From NCBI GenBank assembly GCA_965112635.1, contig OZ218778.1:2048001-2112000 (forward strand): 64,000 bases of DNA, in the 5' to 3' direction. Below, piece after piece: positions 2,340 to 24,609 of the stretch. How positions within the stretch are numbered: position 1 is the stretch's first letter; each line of letters opens with the position of its first letter. Below the pieces are notes generated by a model. The model searched no databases and had not been told where the DNA came from. It saw nothing but the letters and a program-made list of their open reading frames with translations. Made by a program: the position numbers and the translations under genes. The DNA is from an uncultured bacterium. GTDB taxonomy: Bacteria > Oederibacteriota > Oederibacteriia > Oederibacteriales > Oederibacteriaceae.

Positions 2340-2443
2340 AAACTAGTAAGGTAGGCTGGACTGCTTTGCAGAAGCCTGTAATTGCCGATTGACTGAGGCA
2401 ATTTTTTTACAGCGATTTAGTTCGAGCCGATCCTTACTGGTTT
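2340..2443 (+). ncRNA. Candidate cis-regulatory leader RNA, copy 1 (flgF leader)
   Basis: Hairpin A UAGGCU-GGA-CUGC-uuu-GCAG-A-AGCCUG (2352-2378); hairpin B AAUUGCC-GAUUGACUGA-GGCAAUU (2380-2403); closing helix 2340-2351/2432-2443; related copies at 21116 and 24548. Confidence 0.7.
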
Positions 2444-2467
2444 TTTACCAGTAAGGATTTTTTATTT
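2430..2467 (+). terminator. Intrinsic terminator inside the flgF 5' leader (attenuator)
   Basis: Perfect 12 bp stem ATCCTTACTGGT/ACCAGTAAGGAT followed by TTTTTATTT, just before the flgF SD (AGGAGG 2471-2476). Confidence 0.8.
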
Positions 2468-2483
2468 AGAAGGAGGGCTTCAA

Positions 2484-3272
2484 ATGATCGCTGGTATTTA
2501 TACCTCTGCTTCAGGAATGATCGCCTATCAAACCCAAATGGATGTTGTGGCGAATAATCTTGCCAATGTTTCCACGACTGGTTTTAAAAAAGACGAAGCC
2601 GTCTTCACGGCCTTTCCTTCCTGGGTCATTCATCGTGTCAATGACAATATCGTTCCCATGGGAAGCGGTGCATTAGATTTGAGGCCTGCCATCGGCGTGA
2701 GAGGCGGAGGCGTGCAAGTCATGGACAATAATGTCATCCCGCGTTTTGATCAAGGCTCTTTGCAAGGAACGGACAATCCTTTTGATCTTGCCATTGAAGG
2801 GTCCGGTTTTTTTTCAGTGCAGACTCCCCAGGGGATCCGGTATACCCGTAATGGAAATTTTACGCTAAGCAGCAATAAAGAGCTTGTCAATATGGAGGGG
2901 TGTCAAGTTTTAGGAAATGATAACAAGCCCATAGTCATAAATGGTGACAAGGTCAACGTGATCGGGGACGGCTCGGTCTATGTTGACGGCATAAAGACCA
3001 ATCAGGTCGCCCTGACCGAGTTTGCTAACCCCCAATCTCTGACCAAACAAGGCGATGGGTTGTTCATTGCTCCGCAGGGGGTGGCACTAAACACCGGGAC
3101 GCCACAGTCCAGAGTCCACCAGGGCTCTCTAGAGTCATCCAATGTCAATACAATTGGGGAAATGGTCAAAATGATCGCTACGATGAGAGCGTATGAGGCA
3201 AGCCAACGCATGATCAGTTACCAGGACAGCACGCTCGGACACGCGGTCAACGATATTGCCAGAATGGCTTAA
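2484..3272 (+). CDS. flgF: Flagellar basal-body rod protein FlgF
   Basis: ANNLANVSTTGFKK, DLAIEGSGFF, YTRNGNF, LESSNVN; precedes flgG. Confidence 0.9.
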   Translation: MIAGIYTSASGMIAYQTQMDVVANNLANVSTTGFKKDEAVFTAFPSWVIHRVNDNIVPMGSGALDLRPAIGVRGGGVQVMDNNVIPRFDQGSLQGTDNPFDLAIEGSGFFSVQTPQGIRYTRNGNFTLSSNKELVNMEGCQVLGNDNKPIVINGDKVNVIGDGSVYVDGIKTNQVALTEFANPQSLTKQGDGLFIAPQGVALNTGTPQSRVHQGSLESSNVNTIGEMVKMIATMRAYEASQRMISYQDSTLGHAVNDIARMA

Positions 3273-3314
3273 AGAAGAAATTATTAAAATCTTAAGCAGA
3301 GGAGGAACGGTTAG

Positions 3315-4112
3315 ATGATGAGGACATTGTGGTCAGCTGCGTCAGGCATGTTGGCCCAGCAATTGAATATTGATACAATCAGTAATAACCTGGCGAATGT
3401 GAGCACGACAGGTTATAAGAAAAGCAGGGTGGAATTCCAAGATCTGTTGTATCAAACCATTCGACCTTCAGGTGTTCCGCTTTCTACGGGCACGCAAACA
3501 GCCATTGGGGTGCAGGTAGGCACAGGTACAAAACCTGTGGCTATCCAAAAGCTGTTCACCCAGGGAGAGACCACGATTACCAACAATCCTCTGGACCTAG
3601 AGGTTGACGGAGATGGCTTCTTCCAGGTATCCCAGCCTGATGGAACTATCGCCTATACAAGGGACGGGAGTTTCAACCAGGATGCTGCCGGGCATATCGT
3701 TACGCCAGACGGCAATTATTTGCAGCCTGAAATTTCTATTCCGCAAGATATAACCAGCGTCAGCATCAGCTCGGAAGGCAAGGTTTTTGGGACGGTCCCC
3801 GGACAAACCGACCAATCGCTTTTGGGCGAAATTGAGTTAGTGAAATTTGTCAACCCTGCCGGGCTTAATGCTTTGGGGGGCAATCTGTACGCCGCCACCT
3901 CTGCTTCCGGTGAACCTATCCAGGGTGTCCCCGGTGTCAATGGGTTCGGGTCCATCGCCCAAGGTTCCTTGGAAAATTCAAATGTGCAAGTCGTGGAAGA
4001 AATGGTGAACATGATCATATCCCAAAGGGCTTATGAAGTTAACGCCAAGGCCATCACGACGGCGGACCAGATGCTTTCGTTGGCCAATAACCTCAGGGGA
4101 CAGAACGCATAA
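3315..4112 (+). CDS. flgG: Flagellar distal rod protein FlgG
   Basis: SNNLANVSTTGYKK, FQDLLYQ, QVGTG, YTRDGSF, LENSNVQVVEEMV. Confidence 0.95.
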   Translation: MMRTLWSAASGMLAQQLNIDTISNNLANVSTTGYKKSRVEFQDLLYQTIRPSGVPLSTGTQTAIGVQVGTGTKPVAIQKLFTQGETTITNNPLDLEVDGDGFFQVSQPDGTIAYTRDGSFNQDAAGHIVTPDGNYLQPEISIPQDITSVSISSEGKVFGTVPGQTDQSLLGEIELVKFVNPAGLNALGGNLYAATSASGEPIQGVPGVNGFGSIAQGSLENSNVQVVEEMVNMIISQRAYEVNAKAITTADQMLSLANNLRGQNA

Positions 4113-4127
4113 TAGGGGGGCTGTAGC

Positions 4128-5114
4128 TTGAGACTCAGGATCGGTAGTTTATTAATTTTAGCTTTAGTGGCCCTCTGCGGTGCGGGGCAAACCAAAGATG
4201 GGTCGGGGTCGATATCCATCAAACTTAAAGCGGGCGCTTTAGTCAACGGCAAGGTAGTTTGTCTTAAGGATATCGCGTCCGTGGAAGGGGACGAGGCCCG
4301 GGTATCGCAGTTATTGGAGACCCCTCTCATCGACGCGCCTGCCCCTGCTGAAAGCGTCAAAATGACAGAGCAGCAGCTGGAAGCCATCCTGTTCAGGAAG
4401 GGCATTGATGCAAGCAGTTTTGCTATCAGTGGGGCCAGTGAGATCCAGATCACAGCAAATTTTAAGGAAATAAAGCATGATGATTTTATCGCCATGGTCA
4501 AAGATTACCTCCTCAAAACCATCAGGGTTGATCCCAACGAGCGCCTTACTTTGGACCCCATCTCTTTGCCTGGGGAAGGCGATCTTGTCCTGCCGCATGG
4601 CAACATTTCCGTTGAAGTGACCGGCGAGGTCAATCCGAAGAGCAAGCAGATCATGGTACCCGTAAGGATCAAGGTTGATGGGGTCTATTACAAACATTGT
4701 TCCGTTGCTTTTAAAGTTCACCGCCTAGCGGATGTCGCGGTGGCTAAAAGGAAGATGGAGCGGCACAAGGTCTTGGAGAACGAAGACATTACCATTGAAG
4801 AGAGAGATCTCAATGCCATGTCAGGCGAAGCGATCACTGACATCGGTAGTATTGTTGGAAAGAGGACCACGAGAGCCGTTGCCCCAAAACAGCCCGTGGT
4901 GGCCAGTATGGTCGAGATGCCTCCCCTGATCAAAAGGGGGGATGCGGTCACCGTGGTAGCTCGTTATAAGAACTTGCGGATCACCACTTTGGCCGAAGCC
5001 AAAGATGACGGTCGTTTAGGGGAAACCATTCGTTTGGAGAACGTGGATTCCAAGAAAGAGGTTAAGGCGATTGTAACCGGGGATAAGCAAGCAGAGATAG
5101 AAGTGAAATTATAG
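4128..5114 (+). CDS. flgA: P-ring assembly chaperone FlgA
   Basis: Signal peptide; C-terminal SAF-type segment PPLIKRGDAV..DGRLGETIRLEN; between flgG and flgH. Confidence 0.9.
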   Translation: MRLRIGSLLILALVALCGAGQTKDGSGSISIKLKAGALVNGKVVCLKDIASVEGDEARVSQLLETPLIDAPAPAESVKMTEQQLEAILFRKGIDASSFAISGASEIQITANFKEIKHDDFIAMVKDYLLKTIRVDPNERLTLDPISLPGEGDLVLPHGNISVEVTGEVNPKSKQIMVPVRIKVDGVYYKHCSVAFKVHRLADVAVAKRKMERHKVLENEDITIEERDLNAMSGEAITDIGSIVGKRTTRAVAPKQPVVASMVEMPPLIKRGDAVTVVARYKNLRITTLAEAKDDGRLGETIRLENVDSKKEVKAIVTGDKQAEIEVKL

Positions 5115-5130
5115 ATTCGAGGGGGTTTGT

Positions 5131-5757
5131 ATGAAAAAGTCGTTCGTTGTTCCGAAGATAATCCTTGCGGTCCTTCTGGCCAGTGTTTTAGGGTCCATTG
5201 CATTCGCGGACTCTTTATGGAGCCCCAATGGTTCAACGGATACCCCGAATTCCCTGTTTTCGGATAAAAGGTCTTTTAAAGTTGGCGATACGGTGGTGGT
5301 GCAGATCGTCGAGTCTGCCCAAGCGTCCCAGAACATTTCAACTTCAACACAAAAAGACGGATCACTCAGCGGCGGTGTGGGGACCAATCTAGCCGGCTCT
5401 ATGAACAATGCGGGCGGTGGTACCTGGTCGGGGGTGGGAGCTAATGAAACCTATAACGGGTTAGGAAAAAACTCGCGGAGCGGCTCTTTTCAAGGCACCA
5501 TCTCGGTAACGATTAACAAGGTTTTGCCCAACGGGAACCTGGAAATCAAGGGTAGCAGGGTCGTCACCATCAATGATGAGAAAGAGAATATCGAGGTTTC
5601 AGGGATAATACGTCCCTGCGACATCAATTCTTCCAATACGGTCCTTTCTACAGCGATCGCCGAAGCCCGGATATTATACGAAGGCAAGGGACCCTTGGGA
5701 GAAAAGGCACGCCCTGGCTTTTTGACCCGGTTATTGGATTGGTTGTGGATATTTTAA
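5131..5757 (+). CDS. flgH: L-ring protein FlgH
   Basis: SLFSDKR..VGDTVVV, VLPNGNLEIKG, SGIIRP..IAEARI motifs. Confidence 0.92.
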   Translation: MKKSFVVPKIILAVLLASVLGSIAFADSLWSPNGSTDTPNSLFSDKRSFKVGDTVVVQIVESAQASQNISTSTQKDGSLSGGVGTNLAGSMNNAGGGTWSGVGANETYNGLGKNSRSGSFQGTISVTINKVLPNGNLEIKGSRVVTINDEKENIEVSGIIRPCDINSSNTVLSTAIAEARILYEGKGPLGEKARPGFLTRLLDWLWIF

Positions 5758-5779
5758 GAAGGACAAGGGGAGTTCAATT

Positions 5780-6901
5780 ATGTTGAGACGGCATTCAAGC
5801 ATAATAAAAGTTATTCTTTTCTTGCTGGCTGTCGGAGTCATGGCTCAATCTGCCGACGCCGGTAATGTGCGTGTTCGCAACGCAGCCAGGATACAGGGGG
5901 TCAGAGAGAATCAACTTTTAGGCTACGGGCTTGTCGTGGGGCTGCAGTCCACGGGTGACCGTCCTACCAGTATATACAGCACCGGCAACGTCACGGTTCA
6001 GACCGTAGTCAACATGCTGCAAAAATTTGGTGTGGTCGTCGCTCCAGGCCAGATCAAGCCGAACAATGTGGCCGCCGTGATGGTTTCAGCGACCTTGCCT
6101 CCTTTTGTTAAATCAGGGGATAAAATTGATGTGACCGCATCCTCAGTCGGGGACGCCAGAAGCTTGCAGGGAGGCACTCTGTTGGAGACGCCGCTTTTGG
6201 GAGCAGACGGAAATGTCTATGCCGTGGCCCAGGGGAGCGTCTCCGTAGGCGGAGCGGAAACGCAGCCTGGTTTTATTTTCCAAAAACTACCCGTCAACGC
6301 GGGCCGTATCCCTGAGGGGGCTTTGGTAGAAAAAGAAGTCCCCACCAGCATCGTAGAAAGAGGGACCTATTTAAATATTATCCTCAACAGGCCGGATTTC
6401 ACCTCGGCGACAAATCTTACGGATGTTATCAATAAGCAGTTCTGGGGACCTATTGCCAGCGCCAAGGATGCTGCGACCATCAAGATCGAGATACCCTTGG
6501 ATTATCAAAAGAATATCGTCGAATTTATTGCGGCCTTGGAAGGGCTGGATTTCGATGAAGAGGAGGTTTCCAACAAAGTCGTTATTAATGAACGTACGGG
6601 AACCATTGTGATGGGCTTTGACGTACGGATCGACACGGTCGCTATTTCACACGGGAACCTTAGTGTTTATATCTCTCCAGCGCAAGCCATTGTCAATGGA
6701 GGCATTCCCGGCGAGACCGTTAAAGTTCCCAAGGGCGATGAGGGCAAGGGGAACTTGTTGGTCATCCCCGGGGAGGCCGTATCGCTTTCGGAAGTTGTCG
6801 GAGTTCTGAATAGCATTGGCGCAACTCCCAAAGAAATGATTGCTATTATTCAGGCTATCAAAGACGCTGGCGCGTTGCACGCGACATTAGAGATCATGTA
6901 A
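5780..6901 (+). CDS. flgI: P-ring protein FlgI
   Basis: GVRENQLLGYGLVVGL, NVAAVMV, SLQGGTLL, VINERTGTIV, AGALHA. Confidence 0.96.
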   Translation: MLRRHSSIIKVILFLLAVGVMAQSADAGNVRVRNAARIQGVRENQLLGYGLVVGLQSTGDRPTSIYSTGNVTVQTVVNMLQKFGVVVAPGQIKPNNVAAVMVSATLPPFVKSGDKIDVTASSVGDARSLQGGTLLETPLLGADGNVYAVAQGSVSVGGAETQPGFIFQKLPVNAGRIPEGALVEKEVPTSIVERGTYLNIILNRPDFTSATNLTDVINKQFWGPIASAKDAATIKIEIPLDYQKNIVEFIAALEGLDFDEEEVSNKVVINERTGTIVMGFDVRIDTVAISHGNLSVYISPAQAIVNGGIPGETVKVPKGDEGKGNLLVIPGEAVSLSEVVGVLNSIGATPKEMIAIIQAIKDAGALHATLEIM

Positions 6902-6928
6902 ACCCAATAAATTTGGGGAGGCCACTGC

Positions 6929-7273
6929 ATGGACGGCATAAACAAAATCTCTTTGAACGCAAGTTCTTACGGGATACAAAAAATGTACGGCGCTAATTCC
7001 TCATCGCGTCGTCAGGCTGAGTCTGTTTCTCCCGCCCAACAAAAACAATTGGACAAATTAAAGGAAACTGCTCAAGAGTTTGAGTCGCTTTTCCTGTCTT
7101 CGATTTTAAATAAAATGAGTGATGTTATTTTCAAATCGGACCTGACCGAGGAAAGCAACGCCACGACAATTTTCAGAGAGATGCGCAACCAGGAGTTGGC
7201 GCGGTCGATGTCTAAAGCCGGCGGAATAGGGCTGAGCAAAATCCTATACGACCAATTATCGAAAAATATATAA
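6929..7273 (+). CDS. flgJ: Single-domain FlgJ (rod-binding, no muramidase domain)
   Basis: LKETAQEFESLF and GGIGLSKILYDQL; follows flgI. Confidence 0.85.
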   Translation: MDGINKISLNASSYGIQKMYGANSSSRRQAESVSPAQQKQLDKLKETAQEFESLFLSSILNKMSDVIFKSDLTEESNATTIFREMRNQELARSMSKAGGIGLSKILYDQLSKNI

Positions 7274-7294
7274 AAGGAGTTATCGGGGGCCGTT

Positions 7295-7591
7295 ATGGCG
7301 ATGGTGAATTGTACCAAGTGCGGAAAATTATTTCTCCAAGCGGGGGACAAGCCCATTTGTCTCGAATGTTTGTCTCTCGCGGCCAAAGATTATAAAAAGG
7401 TTCATAGTTTTCTAAAACAACATCCGGGAGCCAGGGTGGATGAGGTGAGCGAGAAAACAGGCATCAGCGAAACAATGATCCTGGATTTTTTAAGGGAAGG
7501 CAGGCTTTCTTTGCGGGTAAGCAAGAGTTCCGTGTGCCAGTCATGCGGGGTGCCGATCGATAAAGGAAGTTATTGCGATAAGTGTTCCTAA
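7295..7591 (+). CDS. YvyF-like flagellar operon Zn-finger protein
   Basis: NCTKCGKLF..CLEC, central HTH-like EVSEKTGI..FLREGRL, terminal CQSCG..YCDKC. Confidence 0.8.
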   Translation: MAMVNCTKCGKLFLQAGDKPICLECLSLAAKDYKKVHSFLKQHPGARVDEVSEKTGISETMILDFLREGRLSLRVSKSSVCQSCGVPIDKGSYCDKCS

Positions 7592-7612
7592 TAAATTACT
7601 GGGGAAGATACA

Positions 7613-8128
7613 ATGCAAAACAAATTACTTAAAGACCTTTGGAGCGTATTGCAGGAGGAAATAAACGTTTATAAGGAGCTCTACAAGCTTTCCGAAGAGG
7701 AGAACCGCTTGTTGGTCAACAACGACCTGGAAGCTTTCCAAAAAGTCGTGCAAAAACAGGAGAAGCTGATTTTGGAGATCCATACGATGGACAACGTGAG
7801 GCAAAAAGTGGCTTCGACCATGACCAAAGAACTAGGGGATTCATCCAAGGCGGCCAACATCCCCGACCTTTTTGACAGCTTGGAAGAAGGTGACAAAGCG
7901 AAATTAAAGCAGTTGCAAGGGCAAGTCGTCCAATTAAAAGAAAAGCTTGATGCGATCAACAAGACCAATGGCGTGCTGATATCCAATGCCCTCCAATATT
8001 TGAAGTTTTCCCACAGGATCTCAGGCGGCAAGCCGGAGAAAAATCCCCAGGGAGAGGTTTATAGCGATCTGAAGGAACCGAAAAAAAAGACACCACGCAA
8101 ATCTTCGACGATTGATACGAAGATCTGA
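7613..8128 (+). CDS. flgN: Export chaperone FlgN
   Basis: Helical protein with LDAINKTNGVLI motif, directly upstream of flgK. Confidence 0.82.
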   Translation: MQNKLLKDLWSVLQEEINVYKELYKLSEEENRLLVNNDLEAFQKVVQKQEKLILEIHTMDNVRQKVASTMTKELGDSSKAANIPDLFDSLEEGDKAKLKQLQGQVVQLKEKLDAINKTNGVLISNALQYLKFSHRISGGKPEKNPQGEVYSDLKEPKKKTPRKSSTIDTKI

Positions 8129-8146
8129 GAAAAGGAGGTCGTCACT

Positions 8147-10351: not shown

Positions 10352-10523
10352 GATAAGGCGTAAAGCAGGTTTTTCGTCCTTTTGAGGGGTTTTTTGTTGC
10401 CAGAAAAGAAAAAAGGACGCCCCACCAGGTGTCATATTTTATTCCTAGATTTAGGAACTTTTGTTTAAGTATTGCGTCTAATATATAATAGAAGTAAGGG
10501 AAAAGTTAGAGGAGGGGCGCGAG

Positions 10524-12338
10524 GTGAAAAATTTACTTAAAAAGCGTATTTTGGTCCTGGGGTTTGTTTTGACTTTTGGCTGGTCATCCTCTGTTTGGGC
10601 TGCGGATTGGCCGATTTTTCATTTTGACGGCAGTTCCGGTTTTACCACGGACAGTATTGGGGCGCAGAATCTGGAGAGGTGGAATCATCCTTGTCCCAAT
10701 GCACCCACTTCATGCGTAGTGATTAATGGTTTCACCTATTACACCACCCAAGCAGGAGTTTATAAACTGGACAGCACCGGAGCTCTATCCTCCACTTGGC
10801 CGATAAATCCGGTCAATCCTTCCAGTCTTTCCACAACCTACTACACGATGCCGGCTTACTGGAATAGCGTGATCTATGTCGGGGCCTGGGACCCTACCCA
10901 ATCCAGTAAGAACGGCGTTTATGCGATCAAAACTGCTGATGGCTCTGCGTATTGGACCAATCCGCCGACCTGTCCTGGTTACTGCAACTACAATACCTCC
11001 CAGATCAATACCTACGCGGCTCCCATAGTCGGAAATGCCGGAGCGGTGGAGGCTGTTTTTGTGGGGGATACTGGCGGTAATATTTACGCTTTTGACACGA
11101 CCAAAACAATCCCTACCGCTCTCTGGAGCCACAACCTGGGAACCATGGGACTTTATTCCACTCCGGCTTATTGGACAGATGGAACAGATGCCTGGGTCTA
11201 TTTTGCAATGGTTGCCAGTAACCCCATCAATAGCAAGATATACAAAGTTTTTGCGTCCAGCGGTTTTTGGTTTGGCCCGCCCTTCGGTGTTCATTCCAAT
11301 CCCTGGGCTTGGCCGGCGGTAGGGACCGTAGAAGGTTTTTATTCCTCGCCGGCTGTGGACAGCAGCGGCAATGTATATGTTGGATGCGATAACGATAATG
11401 TCTATTCTATATCTTTGACCGAGACGATGAATTGGACCTTTACGGCTGGGGATGTCGTAAGATCGAGCCCTGCAGTAGCCACGCTGGGCGGGACTCACTA
11501 TGTTTTTGTGGGTTCCAACGACGGCAATCTCTATGCGCTCAATGCGAATACTGGAGCGCAGATATGGAATTATCAGGTGGGAGTCCCTGGTTACGCCGCA
11601 TTGGGTGCTCCGGCAATCAGCCGGGATGGCCTGGTTTATTTTGGCAGCGGGAGTCTCTCGGCTAATATGTATATTTTTCAGGGCAATCCACTTCCATCCA
11701 CTACGCCTCAAGTGGTAGCCACGGTAGGCCCGTGGGGTGTTAACAGCATATTATCCCCAGCACTCAGCGATACAACCGCAGGCGGCGGATTTCCTGCCGC
11801 TTATGTTGCCGCGGATAAAATCTATTGCTTGGGACCGACCTATACTTTGACCCAGTCGGCTACGCCTACGGTGACTGGGACGCCCGGCCCGCCTAGCACT
11901 TCAACGCCAACTTTGACGCCCTTGACTCCGTTTAATACTCCCACTATTACCGTAACATTCACCTGCACTTTGACTCCCACAATTACCACGACGGCCACTG
12001 CCACTCAGACAACTACCATGACCCCCACCATCAGCCCCACTAGTACTCTTACCCTGACATTGACGCCGCCCCCGTATATCATCGTATATCCCAATCCGAT
12101 GAATTTCAGCCAATATAAAGGGGTTAAGATCATCGGAACGCCTATTCTTGGCGCCGATATTGCCATCTATACTATTTCAGGAGAAACAGTGAGAAAGGTT
12201 TCCAAAAATACAGCTTACCCATTTATTTGGGACGGTAATAATGACGACGGTGTACCTGTGGTCACGGGCCTTTATCTCTATATCATCAACACCGCTGACG
12301 GCAATAGCATCAAAGGCAAGTTAGCCATCATTCGTTAA
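10524..12338 (+). CDS. Secreted PQQ-like beta-propeller protein with Thr/Pro linker and T9SS-type (FlgD Ig-like) C-terminal sorting domain
   Basis: Signal peptide VWA-ADWP; repeats SSPAV/VFVGSNDGNLYALNANTG; T/P tract ~11838-12074; tail VYPNP..IYTISGETV..WDGNNDDG..TGLYLY..KLAIIR. Confidence 0.8.
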   Translation: MKNLLKKRILVLGFVLTFGWSSSVWAADWPIFHFDGSSGFTTDSIGAQNLERWNHPCPNAPTSCVVINGFTYYTTQAGVYKLDSTGALSSTWPINPVNPSSLSTTYYTMPAYWNSVIYVGAWDPTQSSKNGVYAIKTADGSAYWTNPPTCPGYCNYNTSQINTYAAPIVGNAGAVEAVFVGDTGGNIYAFDTTKTIPTALWSHNLGTMGLYSTPAYWTDGTDAWVYFAMVASNPINSKIYKVFASSGFWFGPPFGVHSNPWAWPAVGTVEGFYSSPAVDSSGNVYVGCDNDNVYSISLTETMNWTFTAGDVVRSSPAVATLGGTHYVFVGSNDGNLYALNANTGAQIWNYQVGVPGYAALGAPAISRDGLVYFGSGSLSANMYIFQGNPLPSTTPQVVATVGPWGVNSILSPALSDTTAGGGFPAAYVAADKIYCLGPTYTLTQSATPTVTGTPGPPSTSTPTLTPLTPFNTPTITVTFTCTLTPTITTTATATQTTTMTPTISPTSTLTLTLTPPPYIIVYPNPMNFSQYKGVKIIGTPILGADIAIYTISGETVRKVSKNTAYPFIWDGNNDDGVPVVTGLYLYIINTADGNSIKGKLAIIR

Positions 12339-12353
12339 CCTGGGGGAATCTGT

Positions 12354-13469
12354 TTGAAAATTTTATTGTGGCCGGCAACAATATCCCGTCCTAAGGCCGA
12401 GCCCCAAAACCATAGAGGTGTTTTAGTCGGCAGTGCCGCAATGAACCCAGCCACAATCCCCGATATCAAACCTTGTCCACGGTGGACATCACGACTGCTT
12501 CTGGGAATAGCAGTTTTATTGGTATTCCCGGCTTTAAACGCTCAGAAGGCCATGGCTCAAGAGTCTCGTGGGGGGACAACGGCCGCCAATTTTCTGAAGA
12601 TAGGTGTGGGGGCCAGGCCGCTGGGCATGGGCGGAGCCTACGTGGCTATTGCCGATGACTCGAGCAGCGCTTACTGGAACCCGGCGGGATTAGCCAATAT
12701 GGACGCTCAAGTCATCCAATTGGAGCACGCGGAATGGTATGAAGGCATACAATATGAATATTTTGTCGTTGCCCAGCCCGCAGAGTCCTTCGGCCTTCCT
12801 ATTTGGGGCGCTATGGCCTTCTCTTGGTATTATTTGCACATGGGTGATATCCAGCGGACCTTAGAAGACAATATGAGCGGCGACGTGGTCATTCCAGGCG
12901 GCTCCTATTCCGCGGCAGACAGTATTCTTGCCATTTCGTACGGGGGCCAGCTGACCAATTTCCAGGCTTTTGGCATTGGTCTGAAATTCCTGAATCAAAA
13001 GCTGGATTATCTAAATAATAGCGGGATGGCATTTGATTTTGGGATCCAAAGCGCGGCGCCATTAAAAAATTTAAAGATAGGCCTGACCCTGTCCAATATG
13101 GGCCAGGATTTTATGGGCAGCCCGTTACCCACTACATTTAAAATGGGTGTTAATTATAAACTTGCCGGGAGGGGATTCCCCGGCGAATGGAACAACGAGA
13201 TAGACGGGTTGCTGCCGCTGATCAATAGCGATCAAATACCCCAGGCCCTTTTTGGCTCGGAATATGCCATCAACATGAGCACTCAAAAATATTCGTTCCG
13301 GGTCGGGTATGACACGGGTAGAGAGATTGGAACTGCTTTTACAGGGCTTTCCCTTGGCCTAGGATACCTTATCCGATTGGGAAGGTTGGACCTGGGAATA
13401 GATTACGCCTATCTATTTCAGGGAGACTTTGGCGCGACCCACCACTTTACTCTCAATTTAACTTTTTAA
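12354..13469 (+). CDS. PorV/PorQ-family outer-membrane beta-barrel (start uncertain)
   Basis: FLKIGVGARPLGMGGAYVAIADDSSSAYWNPAGL motif; ends IDYAY..HHFTLNLTF. Confidence 0.85.
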   Translation: MKILLWPATISRPKAEPQNHRGVLVGSAAMNPATIPDIKPCPRWTSRLLLGIAVLLVFPALNAQKAMAQESRGGTTAANFLKIGVGARPLGMGGAYVAIADDSSSAYWNPAGLANMDAQVIQLEHAEWYEGIQYEYFVVAQPAESFGLPIWGAMAFSWYYLHMGDIQRTLEDNMSGDVVIPGGSYSAADSILAISYGGQLTNFQAFGIGLKFLNQKLDYLNNSGMAFDFGIQSAAPLKNLKIGLTLSNMGQDFMGSPLPTTFKMGVNYKLAGRGFPGEWNNEIDGLLPLINSDQIPQALFGSEYAINMSTQKYSFRVGYDTGREIGTAFTGLSLGLGYLIRLGRLDLGIDYAYLFQGDFGATHHFTLNLTF

Positions 13470-13527: not shown

Positions 13528-13606
13528 ATGGGTAAGATATTTCTTATGTTTTGGTTTCATGAAGGTTTTGTTAAGATGATTTTCGATTTTGCAGGGAGAA
13601 GATATT

Positions 13607-14153: not shown

Positions 14154-14181
14154 TTGACACTTGTTGCCTGTCTGTTATAAT
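14154..14181 (+). promoter_or_regulatory. Strong sigma70 promoter of the flgB operon
   Basis: TTGACA-N16-TATAAT with extended TG. Confidence 0.8.
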
Positions 14182-14250
14182 TTGGCTCAAATCATTTTTT
14201 AGATGGTTTTTTCAGTTTTTTTATTAAAAATTCAGGGAAATGTGTGGAAA

Positions 14251-14670: not shown

Positions 14671-14689
14671 CAATAGATGGAGGGGTTAA

Positions 14690-15136: not shown

Positions 15137-15179
15137 TTAATTTCAAAAAATGATTTTGATGTTCTAGGGAGGTAGTTCA

Positions 15180-15485: not shown

Positions 15486-15521
15486 TAAAATAAGCAATCC
15501 TTTAAGGTGCTTTCATAAAAA

Positions 15522-17231: not shown

Positions 17232-17240
17232 GAGACAGGA

Positions 17241-18263: not shown

Positions 18264-19146
18264 GGTTGAATTTGCCAAAAGCATCCTTGTAAAAAGAAAT
18301 TATTTTTACCAGAAAGAAGCTTTTTTTTTGCAAAATATGATGTGGGAGAGGCTGAAGGCTGCTGCTCTCAGCGGTGAAATGTCCTCTGATTCTGAAGATG
18401 GGGCCGCAATCACCGAGAAAGACCAAGAAGTTGCCCAAATAAGGCGGGCAAAAGATATCTTCCGTGAAGCCACAGAGAAATCAGCTCAAATAATAGAGGA
18501 AGCAAAAGGCGAAACCCAAAAGATCATTAAAAAAGCATTAGCCGATAGCCAATCCCAAGCTGAACAAATCACAGCCGAAGCTGAAGCAAAAGCACAAAAA
18601 TTCATTGCGGAGTCAGAAAAGCAGGGCAAAGATATCAGAGAAAGCGCCTATGGGAAAGGTTACGAAGAAGGTTTTTTAAAGGGCATCAAAGAGGGCAGTT
18701 TTCAGGGTGAGTCCAAGGGTTTTGAAAAATGGCAAGATTGCATTAATCGCTGGGAAGAGGCCTTAAAGGGTATTTTGGCGCAGAAAGAGATCTTTCTAAA
18801 GCAATCCGAGTCGTCCCTATTTGAATTGGCGATCGCCATTGCTGAAAAAGTCATTGCAGGGTCTGTTCCATTGGACAAGAAGATCATTCTAAGGCAGGTC
18901 CAAGAGGCCATAAAACAGTCCATAGACAAAGAGTGGGTACTGGTGAGGGTGAACAGCGAAGATTTTGAAACCCTTAAAAAAGCACGCACAGACCTCGTGG
19001 AAAAAAGCGGGATACAAAAGATCGAAATTATAGAGGATGATTCCATTGGGGCTGGTGGGTGCATTATTGAGACGCCGTCAGGCAATATCGATTCGCGTCT
19101 TACCGAACAAATGAATGCAGTTGTCAAAGAATTGAGAGAGGTTTAG
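18256..19146 (+). CDS. fliH: Flagellar assembly protein FliH
   Basis: GxxxG repeats (AYGKGYEEGFLKG), GGCIIET..IDSR; TTG start after GGAGGA, overlapping fliG stop. Confidence 0.88.
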   Translation: MSKVEFAKSILVKRNYFYQKEAFFLQNMMWERLKAAALSGEMSSDSEDGAAITEKDQEVAQIRRAKDIFREATEKSAQIIEEAKGETQKIIKKALADSQSQAEQITAEAEAKAQKFIAESEKQGKDIRESAYGKGYEEGFLKGIKEGSFQGESKGFEKWQDCINRWEEALKGILAQKEIFLKQSESSLFELAIAIAEKVIAGSVPLDKKIILRQVQEAIKQSIDKEWVLVRVNSEDFETLKKARTDLVEKSGIQKIEIIEDDSIGAGGCIIETPSGNIDSRLTEQMNAVVKELREV

Positions 19147-19148
19147 TC

Positions 19149-20504
19149 ATCAAAGATATCACTCCTAGATTTTCAAAATATCATGAAAAGTTAACCGAAG
19201 TAAAACTCAGACAACTCCATGGTAAGGTCGAAGATTTAATTGGTATTGTTATCGAGGGTGTAGGGCCGAAGACTTTTATCGGAGAAATTTGCGATATTTG
19301 CTCTCCTCTCGACGGGCAGCGAGTCAAGGCTGAGGTAGTAGGTTTCAAGGGCAACAGAATGGTCCTCATGCCTTTGGGAGAAATGAGAGGTATTTCTCCG
19401 GGTAGCGAGATCATCCCCACCGGAAGTCCATTTGAGGTAGTTGTCGGCGATGATTTATTAGGCAGAGTCATTGACGGACTAGGAAACCCTTTAGATGACA
19501 AAGGACCCATCAGGGGCCAGTCCACTTATCCTGTCCACCAGTTTCCCTCTCATCCCTATAGCAGGCAGCGTATCCATGAGATCCTTGTCACTGGGGTACG
19601 CGCGATCGATGGTTTGTTGACATGTGGGCAGGGCCAGAGGATCGGTATATTTTCCGGCAGTGGTGTTGGAAAAAGCACGCTGCTAGGTATGATCGGAAGA
19701 TATACTGAAGCTGATGTCAATGTTATTGCACTAGTCGGTGAGAGAGGCAGGGAAGTCAGGGATTTTATTGAGAAGGACCTTGGCGAAGCCGGGCTGAAAA
19801 GATCCGTGGTGGTGGCGGCCACCTCTGACCAACCCCCGCTGGTCAGAGTGCAGGGCGCTTTTGTTGCAACCGCCATTGCAGAATATTTTAGAGATCAAGG
19901 GAAAAAGGTCATTTTAATGATGGATTCTGTCACACGTCTGGCGATGGCCCAAAGAGAGATAGGCCTGGCGATAGGTGAGCCACCCGCAACAAAAGGATAT
20001 ACCCCTTCTGTATTTTCAATGTTACCCAGATTGCTAGAACGAGCGGGTACTACTTCACACCAAGGCAATATTACGGGAATTTATACTGTTCTGGTCGAGG
20101 CGGATGATATCAATGAGCCAATCTCAGACGCGGTGCGTGCTATTTTGGATGGTCATATAGTTCTATCCAGGGAGTTGGCCTCCCAGAATCATTATCCCCC
20201 TATTGATATCCTCGAAAGCATCAGCAGGCTCATGAACGACCTAGTTCCGAAGTACCACAAGAATATCGCGGGGCAGATCCGGGAATATTTGGCTGTTTAT
20301 AAAAACGCGAGGGATTTGATAAATATCGGGGCCTATGTCTCTGGCAGCAACCCCAAAATTGATGCTGCTTTGCATTATGTGAATACAATAGAATCGTTTT
20401 TGAAACAGGCTGTTGAAGAAAAGTCTTCATTCCAAGAAACCATAGATGGGATGGGGAAATTGTTCGTTTCGGCCCCTTCTGACCAAAAACAACCTGCTTT
20501 ATAA
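19149..20504 (+). CDS. fliI: Flagellar export ATPase FliI (apparent ATC start)
   Basis: GSGVGKS, GERGREV, DSVTR, GEPP; frame extends upstream of the track start through GKVEDLIGIVIEGVGP with no ATG/GTG/TTG. Confidence 0.93.
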   Translation: MKDITPRFSKYHEKLTEVKLRQLHGKVEDLIGIVIEGVGPKTFIGEICDICSPLDGQRVKAEVVGFKGNRMVLMPLGEMRGISPGSEIIPTGSPFEVVVGDDLLGRVIDGLGNPLDDKGPIRGQSTYPVHQFPSHPYSRQRIHEILVTGVRAIDGLLTCGQGQRIGIFSGSGVGKSTLLGMIGRYTEADVNVIALVGERGREVRDFIEKDLGEAGLKRSVVVAATSDQPPLVRVQGAFVATAIAEYFRDQGKKVILMMDSVTRLAMAQREIGLAIGEPPATKGYTPSVFSMLPRLLERAGTTSHQGNITGIYTVLVEADDINEPISDAVRAILDGHIVLSRELASQNHYPPIDILESISRLMNDLVPKYHKNIAGQIREYLAVYKNARDLINIGAYVSGSNPKIDAALHYVNTIESFLKQAVEEKSSFQETIDGMGKLFVSAPSDQKQPAL

Positions 20505-20531
20505 ACTCAAAAATCGGGGTATTGAGCATAA

Positions 20532-20978
20532 TTGAAAAAATTTAGCTTTTCATTACAGCCTGTCTTGGATTATCGGAAAACTATCGAAGAAGCCTTAAAA
20601 AGGGAGTTTTCTGCCTCCCAATCAGTTTTGCAAGAGGATATGCGTCATCTCGAGGTTTTGGTTGATAAAAAGGATGATTGTCAAGACGAGTTGGCCAAGA
20701 AAAGAACTAAAGATATGGGAATACAGGAATTAAGCGAATATCAAAATTATCTGGATCTGATAATGCAGAATATTAGGGGACAAAAAGTTAAAATACAGGC
20801 AGATTTAAAGGAAATAGACGAAAAGAGGACCCAACTAACAGAAGCTTCAAAGAAAAAGAAGGTTTTAGAGCGTCTGAGAGAAAAACACCTGTTATTGTTT
20901 ATGAAAACACTGGATAAGTGGGAACAGCATTTTCTCGATGAAATCTCGAGAAATCGGTATATTAGCGAAAAGCTTTGA
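20532..20978 (+). CDS. fliJ: Export protein FliJ
   Basis: MKKFSFSLQPVLDYR..LERLREK..EQHFLDE; follows fliI. Confidence 0.9.
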   Translation: MKKFSFSLQPVLDYRKTIEEALKREFSASQSVLQEDMRHLEVLVDKKDDCQDELAKKRTKDMGIQELSEYQNYLDLIMQNIRGQKVKIQADLKEIDEKRTQLTEASKKKKVLERLREKHLLLFMKTLDKWEQHFLDEISRNRYISEKL

Positions 20979-21064
20979 TATTGCTGGGGTTGTAGGATTT
21001 TCAGGGTTAAATTCATTTTATAAAGTTTTTTTCAGGGTATTTCAGAGACTTTTAAGGGGTACCC

Positions 21065-21092
21065 TTGACAAAGCTGGATCTAGGAGTATAAA
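21065..21092 (+). promoter_or_regulatory. Internal sigma70 promoter for fliK-flgD-flgE
   Basis: TTGACA-N16-TATAAA in a long intergenic region. Confidence 0.6.
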
Positions 21093-21115
21093 TAAGAATA
21101 GAAACAGAAAAATTT

Positions 21116-21189
21116 AGGACATAAATGGCTGGACTGCTTAGCAGAAGCCAATGGTTGCTGAATGAATGAAGCAATCAGTTTTATGTCCT
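21116..21189 (+). ncRNA. Candidate cis-regulatory leader RNA, copy 2 (fliK leader)
   Basis: UGGCU-GGA-CUGC-uua-GCAG-A-AGCCA; UGGUUGCU-GAAUGAAUGA-AGCAAUCA; closing helix AGGACAUAAA/UUUAUGUCCU. Confidence 0.7.
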
Positions 21190-21366
21190 CACGTTGCAGG
21201 TGAGGAAAATGAGAGCGGTCAATTTAGATCTCAAAAAAGATTTCCTAACCCACCAAAGTTTTTTTCTTGAAGTTTATCTTTCTCAATTCATGAAGAATAT
21301 ATTTGATGATTGTTTGTTGCTGCCTCATTGTTTTTGTTTGATTCCTGCAGAAGGGAGGCAGATCAA

Positions 21367-23646
21367 ATGATTATCAATCAACCCTCCCAGGCACTACCTA
21401 TCTTGAATTTCCTTGATGGTGCTGGCAATCAATCGCAGCAGGGAACACCTGGTGGCCAGACATTCAGTGATGCTTTCATTGCGGCTAGCCAGGGATTGGC
21501 TGGCCTGCCTATTTCACCCGCCATTCAAAATAGTCCCAACACAATAAATGTCGATCCTGAAAAAATAAACCAGGCTACCATGCAGTTAATAAGCGACGTT
21601 AATTCGATGCCAGTCTCGAATCAAAATCATGCCTGGAATAATGTTCCTGATCAGTTAGTCCAATCCCAAAAATCCAATGAGGTCAATTTATTCGGAAATG
21701 GCTATAATGCCATGACAATAGATAATCTGCAGGTCCAGCAAAACAGTGTTCCCTCCAATCAAGGCGTGATGAGTAACGGCGCACCCTCTTTACCTTACAT
21801 TGATAACGAGAGTGAGGCAAACGGTTCATTTGAGCTTAAGACCCAGGGCGTATTTGGCAGCAACAATATCGTGCCGCAGCAAGGTCAAGAACAGCAGGGT
21901 CTTGTGGTAAGCCAAAAGCAAATGCAGGTGTCCGCTTCAGATTCCATAAAAGAGAATAGCTCTATTGATGCTGCGACAATGTCGCCCGCGAGTGAAAACA
22001 TCCTGGGCAGCCAGATTGATTCAGTGAGCCAGGATATCTTCGCTTCCTCAAATCTAAGTGCATTGACAGATTCCAGCAAAGTTAGTCCAGTTGCTAGTTT
22101 AATTTATGGACACGAACTTGGCTCTCCAGCTGTTTCGCAGTTCTCCGGACCAAGCGCAGATCCTTTATTAAGTACTGCCGGACCCAATATCCAAGTTCAA
22201 CCGCAAGCAGTTGCTTCGCCTGTTCCACTATACCGGGGAGATCAGCCAGTTCTCTATTCAGATAGCGGAAGCATGGGAACATTTGGGACGGAAAATTCGG
22301 TAACTCTTAGCCGGCAAGATAGTGATGGACAAACGAAGGACATGGCTCAACCGACAGCTACCCAATCGAGCATCATGGCGGGAGCTTTGTGGGCCAGTGC
22401 TGTCAATCAGGGAGCCTATTTTATTCCTGAGGCTGAGAGCAATTCTATTGCTACTAATAATGCGACTTCGTCAGAAGCACTTACGAGCAATGCAGCGGGA
22501 GCTGGGTTAAACGTAGTAACTGACGACCAATTGAGTAGCCAAGGTGCCTTAAATAATGACGCTGTGCTGAATGTGAGCAGTACGACGGAAGGTCAAAATT
22601 TGGATTTATCAAATTATCAAGACGTATTTAATCAGGTTACTGGTACGCAAGCGGGAACCGGCTCCCTCAATAATTCACCATCAGAAAAGATGCTTTCTAT
22701 GCAAAGCAGCTACGATATAAATAAGTCGATTGATGATGAGCTGCCGGTTGTTTCAGAGAATGTTTTAGGTGCACCGCAGTCTTCCAATACCCCAGTTATA
22801 CCTGCATCAAATTACGTTGTTGCAGCGAACACCCAGGTTCCCGCAATAAACGCAGTTCTTTCCGGCCAGTTTGGCCAGAATATAGGGGTAGCCAACGCAA
22901 AATCCAATATTGTGGTGCTAAATCAAAATCACGAGGTTCTGCCCGAGACCGTTTCTTCCCTAGATAATAATGGCAACAACTTCGTTCAAAATCCTCAAAA
23001 TACCGGAAATCCCCTTGAATTAAAGGCATTTGTTGGCCTTATGGGCAGTGGCGGCCTGTCAATCTCCGGAGGCAATAATTTTAACGGAAGTAGCAGCTTG
23101 CCGATCATAGCTCCCCAAGTGAAACCGGAGGACCTGCAGATTGGCTTAAACCCCAGCGTTGTGGATTTAGCCAGCAGCCGGCCTGGTAACAGTGATATGA
23201 AAATCCTCCAAAATAATGTGCAGAAATCGGTCAATGATGAGGTATTCAGCCAAATTGTTGAAAAGGCTAACCTTATGATAAATGCAGGAGTCAGTCAGAT
23301 CAATATTGTGCTTAAACCAGAACATTTAGGGACCCTGTTGCTCCAAGTCACTCATACCCAGAATGCTCTTTCCGCCTCAATCCAAACCCCCAATGCTGCG
23401 GTCAGCGATGTCCTTAAGTCCCAGTTGGGAGCTTTAAAGACATCTCTTGCGGCTGAGGGAGTCCATCTGCAAAATTTAAATGTTTTCACGGGGAGCAATT
23501 TTAACCAGAACGGGAACAATGCGGGTAATTGGGAAAGGGCGGATTACCCTAACATTTTGCCGGTTTCATTGAGATCTATTTCTAGCGAAGATAATTATTC
23601 CCTGAACCGTATCGGCAGCGACAGTTTAGTGGATGTTTTTGCTTAA
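21367..23646 (+). CDS. fliK: Hook-length control protein FliK (long, ~760 aa)
   Basis: Low-complexity S/N/Q-rich N-region; C-terminal IVLKPEHLGTL..LKSQLGALKTSL; precedes flgD. Confidence 0.88.
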   Translation: MIINQPSQALPILNFLDGAGNQSQQGTPGGQTFSDAFIAASQGLAGLPISPAIQNSPNTINVDPEKINQATMQLISDVNSMPVSNQNHAWNNVPDQLVQSQKSNEVNLFGNGYNAMTIDNLQVQQNSVPSNQGVMSNGAPSLPYIDNESEANGSFELKTQGVFGSNNIVPQQGQEQQGLVVSQKQMQVSASDSIKENSSIDAATMSPASENILGSQIDSVSQDIFASSNLSALTDSSKVSPVASLIYGHELGSPAVSQFSGPSADPLLSTAGPNIQVQPQAVASPVPLYRGDQPVLYSDSGSMGTFGTENSVTLSRQDSDGQTKDMAQPTATQSSIMAGALWASAVNQGAYFIPEAESNSIATNNATSSEALTSNAAGAGLNVVTDDQLSSQGALNNDAVLNVSSTTEGQNLDLSNYQDVFNQVTGTQAGTGSLNNSPSEKMLSMQSSYDINKSIDDELPVVSENVLGAPQSSNTPVIPASNYVVAANTQVPAINAVLSGQFGQNIGVANAKSNIVVLNQNHEVLPETVSSLDNNGNNFVQNPQNTGNPLELKAFVGLMGSGGLSISGGNNFNGSSSLPIIAPQVKPEDLQIGLNPSVVDLASSRPGNSDMKILQNNVQKSVNDEVFSQIVEKANLMINAGVSQINIVLKPEHLGTLLLQVTHTQNALSASIQTPNAAVSDVLKSQLGALKTSLAAEGVHLQNLNVFTGSNFNQNGNNAGNWERADYPNILPVSLRSISSEDNYSLNRIGSDSLVDVFA

Positions 23647-23675
23647 ATATTCTTAATCTTAAGGAGGTGAGTGAG

Positions 23676-24104
23676 ATGTCTACAGGCATTGGCAGTATCT
23701 TGAGCAGTTTGACCAGTAGTGCAAACACCACAAAGGACACTAATGCGTTAGCTTCTGGCCAAGCATTGACCGAGTCTGATTTTCTGAATATGCTGATCAC
23801 AGAGCTGGAGAACCAGGACCCGACCAATCCGGTGGATGATACGCAGATGGCCTCGCAAATGGCCCAATTCAGTTCCCTGGCAGCCATGACCAATATGTCG
23901 ACGACCCTGCAGTCCATGAGCAATTCCGAGTCTTTATACAGCGGAGTGGCGATGATAGGCAAAACTATCGCGGCGACAGACCCCAAGACCGGAGCAGTGA
24001 CCCAGGGAGTCGTCAGCCAAGTCCACATTGACGGCACCGGCAATACGACGCTTTTGGTGGGGAATTCGACCGTACCTTTATCCAATGTAACAACCGTAAT
24101 GTAA
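23676..24104 (+). CDS. flgD: Hook cap FlgD (short form)
   Basis: FLNMLITELENQDPTNP..QMAQFSSL..MIGK. Confidence 0.93.
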   Translation: MSTGIGSILSSLTSSANTTKDTNALASGQALTESDFLNMLITELENQDPTNPVDDTQMASQMAQFSSLAAMTNMSTTLQSMSNSESLYSGVAMIGKTIAATDPKTGAVTQGVVSQVHIDGTGNTTLLVGNSTVPLSNVTTVM

Positions 24105-24137
24105 AGAAACATAAACCATTAAAGGAGGTGATATCAG

Positions 24138-24527
24138 GTGGTAGATAGGATCCAGTCCCTAGGACAGACTCAAAACATTCCAGATTTGCTAAAAGACAGA
24201 GCTGTCAAAAAGCCCGCTAATGCTGGACCCTCATTCCAGGATGTTTTCCAAGGTGCGGCGGATAAGACCTCCCCGGTCAAATTTTCCGCGCATGCGCTAC
24301 AAAGGCTGCAAATGAGGAATATCCAGCTCAGCCCCCAGGATCTTTCCAAGATTGATGGGGCAGTCAATAAGGCAGCGAGCAAAGGGGCGCGCGAGTCATT
24401 GTTGGTAATGAACAATAATCTGGCGTTAGTGGTCAGCGTCAAGAACCGCACGGTCATTACGGCTGTGGACGGCCAGAGCATGAAAGACAATGTGTTCACC
24501 AACATTGATAGTGCGGTGATTCTATAA
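24138..24527 (+). CDS. Flagellar operon protein, TIGR02530-like
   Basis: KFSAHALQRLQMRNI..KGARESL..VSVKNRTVITA..VFTNIDSAV; between flgD and flgE. Confidence 0.88.
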   Translation: MVDRIQSLGQTQNIPDLLKDRAVKKPANAGPSFQDVFQGAADKTSPVKFSAHALQRLQMRNIQLSPQDLSKIDGAVNKAASKGARESLLVMNNNLALVVSVKNRTVITAVDGQSMKDNVFTNIDSAVIL

Positions 24528-24547
24528 AGTTAGAAAAATTATGTATT

Positions 24548-24609
24548 GTTCAAGCTGGACCTCGTTGAGGAAGCTTGAATCGGGGAGCCCAATAGTAAAT
24601 TGGGACTCC
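24548..24609 (+). ncRNA. Candidate leader RNA, copy 3 (flgE leader; hairpin A plus an unrelated hairpin)
   Basis: GUUCAAGCU-GGA-CCUC-guu-GAGG-A-AGCUUGAAU (24548-24580): same internal loop, covaried stems. Confidence 0.62.

Follow-up and report, generated by a model that had tools for sequence, protein, structure and literature searches.

Flagellar gene control is described in textbooks at the level of the transcription cascade; control at the RNA level is known for flagellin, through CsrA and FliW, and for some riboswitches that respond to cyclic di-GMP (c-di-GMP). For the rod and hook stage of assembly, no dedicated conserved RNA element is known to us. Here we describe such an element in a window of 64,000 nt (the whole stretch of DNA that was analysed, positions 2,048,001 to 2,112,000 of contig OZ218778.1, assembly GCA_965112635.1, from an uncultured bacterium of the Oederibacteriota). 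In this window, a hairpin with the consensus RGGCY-GGA-C[stem]G-R-RGCCY is found before flgF, before a short open reading frame (ORF) coupled to fliK, and before flgE. The element has been conserved across at least two phyla, in hundreds of bacteria, and it is an uncatalogued RNA family that is sharply defined, very widespread and specific to the rod/hook stage.

The closest described systems share single features with this element. GEMM (c-di-GMP-I) riboswitches are listed before flgB, flgC, flgG and other motility genes in two reports (PMC1950547; PMC8237595). Like a GEMM leader, for example that of Clostridioides difficile flgB, the element is a structured 5′ leader on early flagellar genes, and in two copies of the source genome it is joined to a terminator platform. 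It differs from GEMM in that no match to the Rfam model was obtained even at E values up to 10, as the first-pass annotation, which had been made from the DNA letters, had anticipated for the c-di-GMP riboswitches. It also differs in its size of about 59 nt, with hairpin 1 alone taking about 30 nt, in being confined to rod/hook genes, and in usually lacking a terminator. For the FliW-CsrA-flagellin partner switch, a model in which translation is coupled to assembly has been presented (PMC4894983). CsrA sites in flagellin leaders resemble the element in presenting a GGA-bearing hairpin near the ribosome-binding site of a flagellar structural gene. However, the GGA of the element is located not in an apical loop but in an internal one, with a covarying helix on either side, the downstream genes encode rod and hook proteins and not flagellin, and the source genome contains neither CsrA nor flagellin.

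Other known RNAs are more distant. The families Termite-flg and flg-Rhizobiales are also conserved structures upstream of flagellar genes, but cmscan returned neither of them for the element, whether in the window or among 20 related loci. RAT hairpins have about 30 nt and asymmetric internal loops, and they are stabilised by a protein of the LicT/SacY type so that a terminator does not form. By this description, hairpin 1 is similar in size and in its asymmetric internal loop, but RAT overlaps the terminator and controls sugar operons, whereas in our element it is the 5′ flank, rather than the hairpin, that is predicted to pair with the terminator. Tandem G-A pairs (GA...GA) could close the loop of hairpin 2 as in a K-loop; unlike a K-turn, hairpin 1 has no tandem G-A pairs beside its 3-nt bulge, and no L7Ae-family gene is present in the source genome.

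When the window was searched with the pattern GCTGGAC-N-GAAGC, exactly three matches were obtained (2355-2375, 21128-21148 and 24554-24574), all on the + strand and at the three sites proposed by the first-pass annotation. The chance expectation for this pattern is 0.04, and none of 100 shuffled sequences gave three matches. A structured scan and pattern search of the whole 2.88-Mb genome revealed a fourth copy at G000:C1:1010348-1010370, so the earlier count of three is correct for the window and too low for the genome. With a covariance model of hairpin 1 (R3), the four copies scored between 27.9 and 36.8 bits in this genome, and the next best site scored 17.4 bits.

In copies 1, 2 and 4, hairpin 1 has the form GGCU-GGA-CUGC-loop-GCAG-A-AGCC and is followed by hairpin 2, with a stem of 7 to 8 bp and a 10-nt loop that reads GAUUGACUGA or GAAUGAAUGA; copies 1 and 2 are nearly identical in hairpin 1. 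Copy 3 shares hairpin 1 only, with the inner stem CCUC/GAGG, and continues with an unrelated hairpin. The exchange of the inner stem, the second hairpin common to copies 1 and 2, and the enclosing helices of different sequence around these two copies (ACUAGUAAGG with CCUUACUGGU in copy 1, AGGACAUAAA with UUUAUGUCCU in copy 2) had all been reported in the first reading of the window and were found again. The same applies to the putative sigma-70 promoters before copies 1 and 2. That of copy 1 was listed by the promoter scan with 11 of 12 consensus positions, and that of copy 2 is visible in the sequence and stands outside the scan's list, its -10 hexamer lacking the final T. No consensus promoter was listed by the scan before copy 4. 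This copy lies far from flagellar genes, before an orphan ORF of 161 codons (L031 2210-2695; G000:C1:1010558-1011043), with a terminator that ends about 100 nt before the ORF; the 161-aa product matched no Pfam family and no homologue besides itself among 5.8 billion clustered proteins.

The base pairs of the element are supported by covariation in four alignments. In A5, comprising 50 sequences fitted to the model, 96.3% of the cells were paired compared to a shuffle mean of 83.6%, and 11 of 15 pairs had changed on both sides; none of 500 shuffles reached as high a value, and slid controls gave 36 to 47% paired cells. In the case of A7, 54 hairpin 1 sequences were aligned by MAFFT only, and 93.7% of the cells were paired (shuffle mean 82.9%), with 8 of 10 pairs changed on both sides. 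A7 does not include loci L061, L118, L121 and L123, in which hairpin 1 was aberrant or its alignment ambiguous, and L132 was left out as a weak match of non-flagellar context. Two later sets, A8 (24 sequences; 94.1% paired, shuffle mean 81.2%, 11 of 15 pairs changed on both sides) and A9 (18 sequences; 95.3%, 86.4% and 5 of 10 pairs), gave similar results. One pair of A5 was U-G in 18, C-G in 16 and U-A in 16 sequences; this pair has G-U on the sense strand only and therefore fits an RNA made from the sense strand. Among 84 distinct full copies, GGAC was present in 82 and the hairpin 2 loop GANYGANNGA in 77. Both helices covary and hold about 20 nearly invariant unpaired letters between them, so that the structure proposed from the window is a real RNA structure, conserved, covarying and aptamer-like in a 5′ leader as is required of riboswitches.

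No catalogued RNA family accounts for this structure. A cmscan of the whole window with all 4227 families of Rfam 15, the check that had been suggested with the first-pass annotation, gave no match at the gathering thresholds. With E values up to 10, nothing relevant was found on copies 2 and 3, and copy 1 showed only weak matches spanning its terminator, the best being PyrR with 20.5 bits against a threshold of 54. The Rfam scan of two groups of related loci (8 and 12) likewise returned nothing at the element. GEMM-I and GEMM-II, Termite-flg, flg-Rhizobiales, EAR and SRP RNA were among the families without a match to the element at the gathering threshold. A resemblance of hairpin 1 to domain IV of SRP RNA was discarded, as no Rfam SRP match was returned. 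A literature search found no description of the element, and an unnamed entry in the supplementary motif lists of large discovery papers is possible.

The element is old and widespread. A covariance model built from the three full copies of the source genome (R1) gave strong matches in relatives, and with a model built from 50 sequences (R2) a match was obtained in 41 of 99 genomes from the phylum of the window (E up to 0.01); this phylum includes metagenome-assembled genomes (MAGs) entitled "candidate division FCPU426". When 185,579 species genomes were scanned with an exact pattern, 47 loci were obtained, of which 42 were confirmed by R1; the five unconfirmed loci (two from Streptomyces, one from Sutterella, one from a Muribaculaceae MAG and one from an Acetobacteraceae MAG) were dropped. 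Titles among the pattern loci included "candidate division FCPU426", several "Bacillota bacterium", and "Armatimonadetes" and "Selenomonadales" MAGs. Outside the phylum, the element was found in all five genomes reached through the pattern loci, in 10 of 21 genomes of one class, in 75 of 151 sampled genomes of the class holding the "Selenomonadales" MAG, and in 91 of 151 sampled genomes of the Bacillota-type phylum that contains both classes. The search beyond the window that had been proposed earlier thus yielded homologues both in the window's phylum and in a Bacillota-type phylum, and the aligned sequences covary.

In the two samples compared, carriers of the element were found only among genomes with rod/hook proteins. 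In the class sample, 93 of 151 genomes encoded proteins with the Flg_bbr_C domain, and all 75 carriers belonged to these 93, with none among the other 58; in the window's phylum, all 41 carriers were among the 77 of 99 genomes with this domain. These counts are given without a test statistic, as related genomes are not independent. Flagellin was present in 13 of the 99 genomes of the phylum, and only G021 combined it with the element. In one family of the phylum (f8), 30 of 31 genomes had rod/hook proteins and none had flagellin. The complete source genome encodes rod, hook, ring, motor and export genes; it gave no match for flagellin (PF00669) or FlgM, and none of its sigma factors attained the FliA cut-off. 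To judge from gene content, such an apparatus may be without a recognisable filament protein. The first-pass annotation had linked the element to a cluster lacking FliA and FlgM; this absence extends to the whole genome, but the link is not general, since four of five carriers checked outside the phylum possess flagellin. An anticorrelation between element and flagellin was dropped for the same reason and is treated as a phylogenetic coincidence.

As the first-pass annotation had proposed, the element is tied to rod and hook genes. In the first set of 66 model matches, which includes two duplicate loci, 41 were located between flgF and flgG and 16 before flgE, following the PF12611 gene or flgD. 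Single matches preceded flgF, the ORF upstream of fliK, flgD, a FlgN-like gene, a FlgF/G-like gene, the orphan ORF, and a MerR-like ORF preceding flgB. In two later sets, 24 of 24 and 9 of 9 matches stood before flgG or flgE. Every match had the same orientation as the gene that follows it. For L034 and L107, this gene was identified by visual inspection; in L054, the start of the ORF falls within the leader; and L084 and L087 were called flgE-like from a neighbouring gene, though their best BLAST match was FlgG at 36%. The majority of copies are intercistronic within one operon, between flgF and flgG or between the PF12611 gene and flgE, with an A-rich spacer and then a strong Shine-Dalgarno sequence after them; outside the source genome, the element usually ends 10 to 70 nt before the start codon. 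Two individual loci may be mentioned: the match before the MerR-like ORF (L061, G010:C221) is a variant with GGC in place of GGA, and on one contig (L120, G023:C307) flgD and flgE are each preceded by a copy.

Comparison of the flgG and flgE leaders shows that hairpin 1 is the universal module and that hairpin 2 is optional. In family f8, the flgG leader contains the full element, and in four of five loci the flgE leader consists of hairpin 1, GAAUC and an unrelated hairpin, which is the layout of copy 3. In families that were negative for the full model, a hairpin 1 match on the expected strand directly followed the PF12611 gene in 17 of 18 loci (E values from 7e-7 to 0.04), often with a longer inner stem. 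Hairpin 2 with its GANYGANNGA loop is present in most flgG leaders and in many flgE leaders, and an unrelated hairpin takes its place in the other flgE leaders. What stays constant in hairpin 1 is an asymmetric internal loop in which GGA on the 5′ strand faces a single purine on the 3′ strand; its outer closing pair is Y-R and its inner closing pair is C-G.

In the source genome, the element is predicted to be built into switches. In copy 1, ACUAGUAAGG (2342-2351) can pair with CCUUACUGGU (2431-2440), the 5′ half of the terminator; this helix appears in the centroid fold, and the duplex energies are -18.4 kcal/mol for the antiterminator and -20.3 kcal/mol for the terminator. Copy 4 has an equivalent competing pairing (-17.6 kcal/mol against -19.5 kcal/mol for its terminator, L031 2081-2110), and the terminators of the two copies are nearly the same. 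In copies 1 and 4, a terminator between promoter and gene is thus combined with an upstream strand pairing with its 5′ half, as in an attenuator; this arrangement is absent from copies 2 and 3. In the case of copy 2, a 10-bp enclosing helix (-12.5 kcal/mol) competes with a hairpin sequestering the Shine-Dalgarno sequence (-13.3 kcal/mol), which the 3′ strand of the helix overlaps. Mutually exclusive structures are therefore predicted for three of the four copies, and thermodynamically copies 1, 2 and 4 would follow a common logic in which the helix closing the element excludes the OFF structure. The promoter scan found no further promoter-like site between the terminator and the start of flgF, and therefore read-through must occur. 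The antitermination that had been suggested earlier agrees with the layout of copies 1 and 4, and copy 2 has a Shine-Dalgarno sequestor instead; terminator-like sites follow only 5 of the 84 distinct full copies and strong ones only 2, both in this genome.

Three further pairings were considered and rejected. A universal pseudoknot between the loop of hairpin 2 and downstream sequence was not supported (mean z -0.24, with z below -1.5 in 12 of 77 copies). A pairing of linker and loop (GUUC:GAAC) that visual inspection suggested in family f8 does not occur in the copies of the source genome, and the 5′ strand of hairpin 1 was judged, by eye, to pair too weakly with the true Shine-Dalgarno sequence. 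In L178, L181, L182, L058 and L183, which represent Bacillota-type bacteria and relatives within the phylum, the hairpin 2 loop is complementary over 8 to 9 bp to a segment 5 to 45 nt downstream, and this pairing may be an alternative that is confined to certain lineages.

The explanation that we favour, to which we give about an even chance, is that the element is a cis-acting structured leader RNA of distal-rod and hook genes whose hairpin 1 docks a dedicated flagellar factor, more likely a protein than a metabolite. A protein is favoured because the gene association is narrow, hairpin 1 persists without hairpin 2, and terminators are lacking in Bacillota-type genomes. Hairpin 1 would then bind a trans-acting factor dedicated to the flagellar system. 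In most organisms, control would probably be exerted at translation initiation, because the element stands 10 to 70 nt before the start codon with no terminator. In the source organism, the same module would operate the switches: in copies 1 and 4, an element that is folded or bound and closed by the helix of its 5′ flank would favour read-through, and in copy 2 the enclosing helix would compete with the hairpin that sequesters the Shine-Dalgarno sequence. From the platforms of copies 1, 2 and 4, which all predict the same sign, we infer that binding would switch expression on.

It is possible, if on balance doubtful, that hairpin 1 is the operator of a flagellar-assembly checkpoint common to Bacillota-type bacteria and the FCPU426-type phylum. 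In such a checkpoint, a dedicated RNA-binding factor would make the synthesis of distal rod, hook cap, hook and hook ruler depend on the state of the export apparatus; the flagellar type III apparatus might export or retain this factor, for which the uncharacterised TIGR02530/PF12611 protein encoded beside flgE is a possible candidate. By analogy, this would correspond to the role of FliW-CsrA for flagellin, one assembly stage earlier. A checkpoint had already been put forward, as an inference, in the first-pass annotation. The PF12611/TIGR02530 protein is encoded in 60 of the 99 genomes of the phylum, a range wider than that of the full motif and similar to that of hairpin 1.

Several observations weigh against a dedicated protein factor and its proposed mode of action. 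A5, A8 and A9 were fitted to a model and thus lean towards structure, and part of the sequences came from the pattern scan, in which some letters are fixed. Loop letters that are nearly invariant across phyla suit a ligand pocket as well as a protein site. Strong terminators are restricted to the two copies mentioned above, and in the relatives no alternative fold that includes the Shine-Dalgarno sequence recurs throughout. When the prefix of copy 1 is folded, the antiterminator coexists with a different pairing of the 5′ strand of hairpin 1, so that a folded element does not force read-through. The promoters, the use of the terminators and the sign of regulation are predictions from folding energies. 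With respect to partners, CsrA (PF02599) gave no match in the complete genome in a search that detected it in the controls E. coli, B. subtilis and T. maritima, and the L7Ae family (PF01248) gave none in a search that detected it in seven named control genomes; CsrA and an L7Ae/K-loop protein were therefore excluded as partners in the source genome. The AlphaFold model of the PF12611/TIGR02530 protein has a mean pLDDT of 76, and a Foldseek search with it against the PDB gave no match below E 0.5 and no recognisable RNA-binding fold; as a model, it offers no evidence from fold either way on RNA binding.

An explanation that we consider unlikely is that the two hairpins, or two hairpin 1 units, form the pocket of a riboswitch for a small molecule or second messenger governing motility, whose bound state would close the enclosing helix and so block the terminator or the Shine-Dalgarno sequestor. 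The known occurrence of c-di-GMP riboswitches before flagellar genes, in the reports cited above (PMC1950547; PMC8237595), agrees with this idea. So do the roughly 20 nearly invariant unpaired letters within covarying helices and the classic riboswitch layout of three copies in the source genome, in which an enclosing helix excludes an OFF structure; in some lineages, the downstream complementarity of the hairpin 2 loop would in addition resemble an expression platform. However, riboswitches of Bacillota usually end in terminators, and strong terminators follow only 2 of the 84 copies. The loop complementarity is not significant over all copies, no riboswitch family of Rfam matches, and hairpin 2, which holds half of the conserved letters, can be lost with the element still in place, as in the many flgE leaders with hairpin 1 alone. 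Moreover, the matches examined stand before rod/hook structural genes and no other gene classes. The label of a small-molecule riboswitch, offered as a candidate in the first reading of the window, is unsupported.

We regard as equally improbable that the element is a signal for RNA processing or stability, that is, an intercistronic hairpin which is cut by a ribonuclease or blocks one, and which would provide the abundant FlgG and FlgE with a stable, well-translated mRNA segment of their own, apart from the upstream flgF and flgD, whose products are needed less. Hairpins at the 5′ end stabilise mRNAs, and RNase III sites carry internal loops. The position of most copies between flgF and flgG or the PF12611 gene and flgE of one operon, the A-rich spacer and strong Shine-Dalgarno sequence after the element, and the lack of a uniform switch structure in relatives would fit such a signal. 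Letters that are nearly invariant across phyla, such as GGAC in 82 of 84 copies, are nevertheless uncommon in nuclease sites or stabilising elements, copies 1 and 2 come after promoter-like sites and not after genes of the same operon, and the terminator and sequestor platforms of the source genome imply a regulated decision.

It is quite improbable that the element acts on RNA polymerase, in the manner of the put RNA of phage HK022 or of EAR, or that copies 1 and 4, each about 130 nt from start to terminator, are short stand-alone RNAs which titrate the factor of the mRNA copies. The presumed resemblance to put and EAR lies in two adjacent hairpins inside long flagellar operons; the nearly identical terminators of copies 1 and 4 and the location of the latter, some 100 nt before an orphan ORF and far from flagellar genes, would also fit this reading. 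In most genomes, however, the element abuts a ribosome-binding site with no terminator after it, transcription of flgF requires read-through of the copy 1 terminator as explained above, and no Rfam family, EAR included, was matched. That the hairpins arose as a repeat by chance, or that they are a DNA operator and do not act as RNA, which the small number of three window copies, two of them nearly identical in hairpin 1, might have suggested, is contradicted by the comparative data to the point of being negligible, given hundreds of independent occurrences with compensatory changes, G-U pairs on the sense strand only and a fixed orientation to the downstream gene.

The gene names given to the window by the first-pass annotation were confirmed by Pfam. 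The genes comprise flgF (2484-3272), followed by flgG, flgA, flgH, flgI and genes for a rod-binding protein and FlgN; further products are FlgK, FlgB, FlgC, FliE and FliF, and a third group consists of FliI, FliJ, FliK, FlgD, the PF12611 protein, FlgE, FlbD, MotA, MotB and FliL. The TGA stop codon of the 53-codon ORF downstream of copy 2 overlaps the likely start of fliK (ATGA; fliK ATG at 21367), and the fliK ORF, which is listed from a TTG at 21310, probably starts later. The positions of the features are compiled in Table 1.

Table 1. Features of the three window copies of the element and of the adjoining genes (R1, R2 and R3 are the covariance models described in the text; SD, Shine-Dalgarno sequence)
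Feature	Position	Strand	Evidence or remark
Promoter before copy 1, sigma-70-like TTGACA-16-TATCAT, TG extended	2297..2324	+	11/12 positions, consensus match only
Copy 1, 5′ flank ACUAGUAAGG, predicted antiterminator strand pairing with 2431-2440	2342..2351	+	duplex energy, centroid fold
Copy 1, hairpin 1, GGCU-GGA-CUGC-UUU-GCAG-A-AGCC, outer stem extended	2351..2379	+	R3 33.9 bits
Copy 1, hairpin 2, 7-bp stem, loop GAUUGACUGA	2380..2406	+	R1/R2 match 2350-2408
Intrinsic terminator, 13-bp stem and U tract, between copy 1 and flgF SD (also delimited as 2429-2459)	2429..2467	+	
flgF SD	2471-2477	+	flgF ATG at 2484
Promoter-like site before copy 2, TTGACA-16-TATAAA	21065..21092	+	read from sequence
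Copy 2, enclosing helix, 5′ strand AGGACAUAAA, predicted to pair with 21180-21189	21116..21125	+	minimum free energy fold, duplex -12.5 kcal/mol
Copy 2, hairpin 1	21126..21150	+	R3 36.8 bits
Copy 2, hairpin 2, loop GAAUGAAUGA	21153..21176	+	
Copy 2, enclosing helix, 3′ strand UUUAUGUCCU	21180-21189	+	overlaps SD hairpin 21187-21205
Copy 2, SD hairpin CCUCAC/GUGAGG	21187-21205	+	contains SD of the ORF starting at 21209
Candidate upstream ORF, 53 codons, own SD, between fliJ and fliK	21209..21370	+	
Gene of PF12611 "putative flagellar" protein	24138-24527		Pfam; adjoins flgE (from 24634)
Copy 3, hairpin 1, 9-bp outer stem, GGA, CCUC-GUU-GAGG, A	24548..24580	+	R3 27.9 bits; between PF12611 gene and flgE
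Copy 3, second hairpin, unrelated sequence, loop AGUAA	24584..24609	+	followed by A-rich spacer
flgE SD	24620-24624	+	flgE ATG at 24634

Some other loci of the window deserve mention. A perfect sigma-70 consensus promoter (TTGACA-16-TATAAT with TG, 12 of 12 positions) is located at 14154-14181, 22 nt before flgB, where no structured leader is present. At 7295-7591, the usual place of flgM just before flgN, an ORF of 98 codons shows weak double-zinc-ribbon and faint helix-turn-helix matches and could, by its sequence, encode an unrecognised regulator. Where FlgL would be expected after flgK (10524-13469), the window encodes a 604-aa beta-propeller protein with a weak C-terminus similar to FlgD-Ig/CHU_C, followed by a 371-aa outer-membrane protein of the PorV/FadL type. 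A second large FliK-like ORF (41205-43802, 865 aa; weak Flg_hook domain with E 1.2e-4, under the Pfam cut-off) lies downstream of FapA and three small ORFs that belong to no family.

The element is present in most flagellated genomes of the sampled Bacillota class (75 of 93) and could be studied there in any culturable motile carrier. Once its partner is known, it should become clear how rod and hook proteins are made in such different amounts from shared operons, and whether synthesis at the hook stage is coupled to assembly. In the window's phylum, genomes mostly have rod/hook genes with no recognisable flagellin, FliA, FlgM or CsrA, and for this reason the element may be one of the few regulatory handles on the flagellar system of these bacteria.

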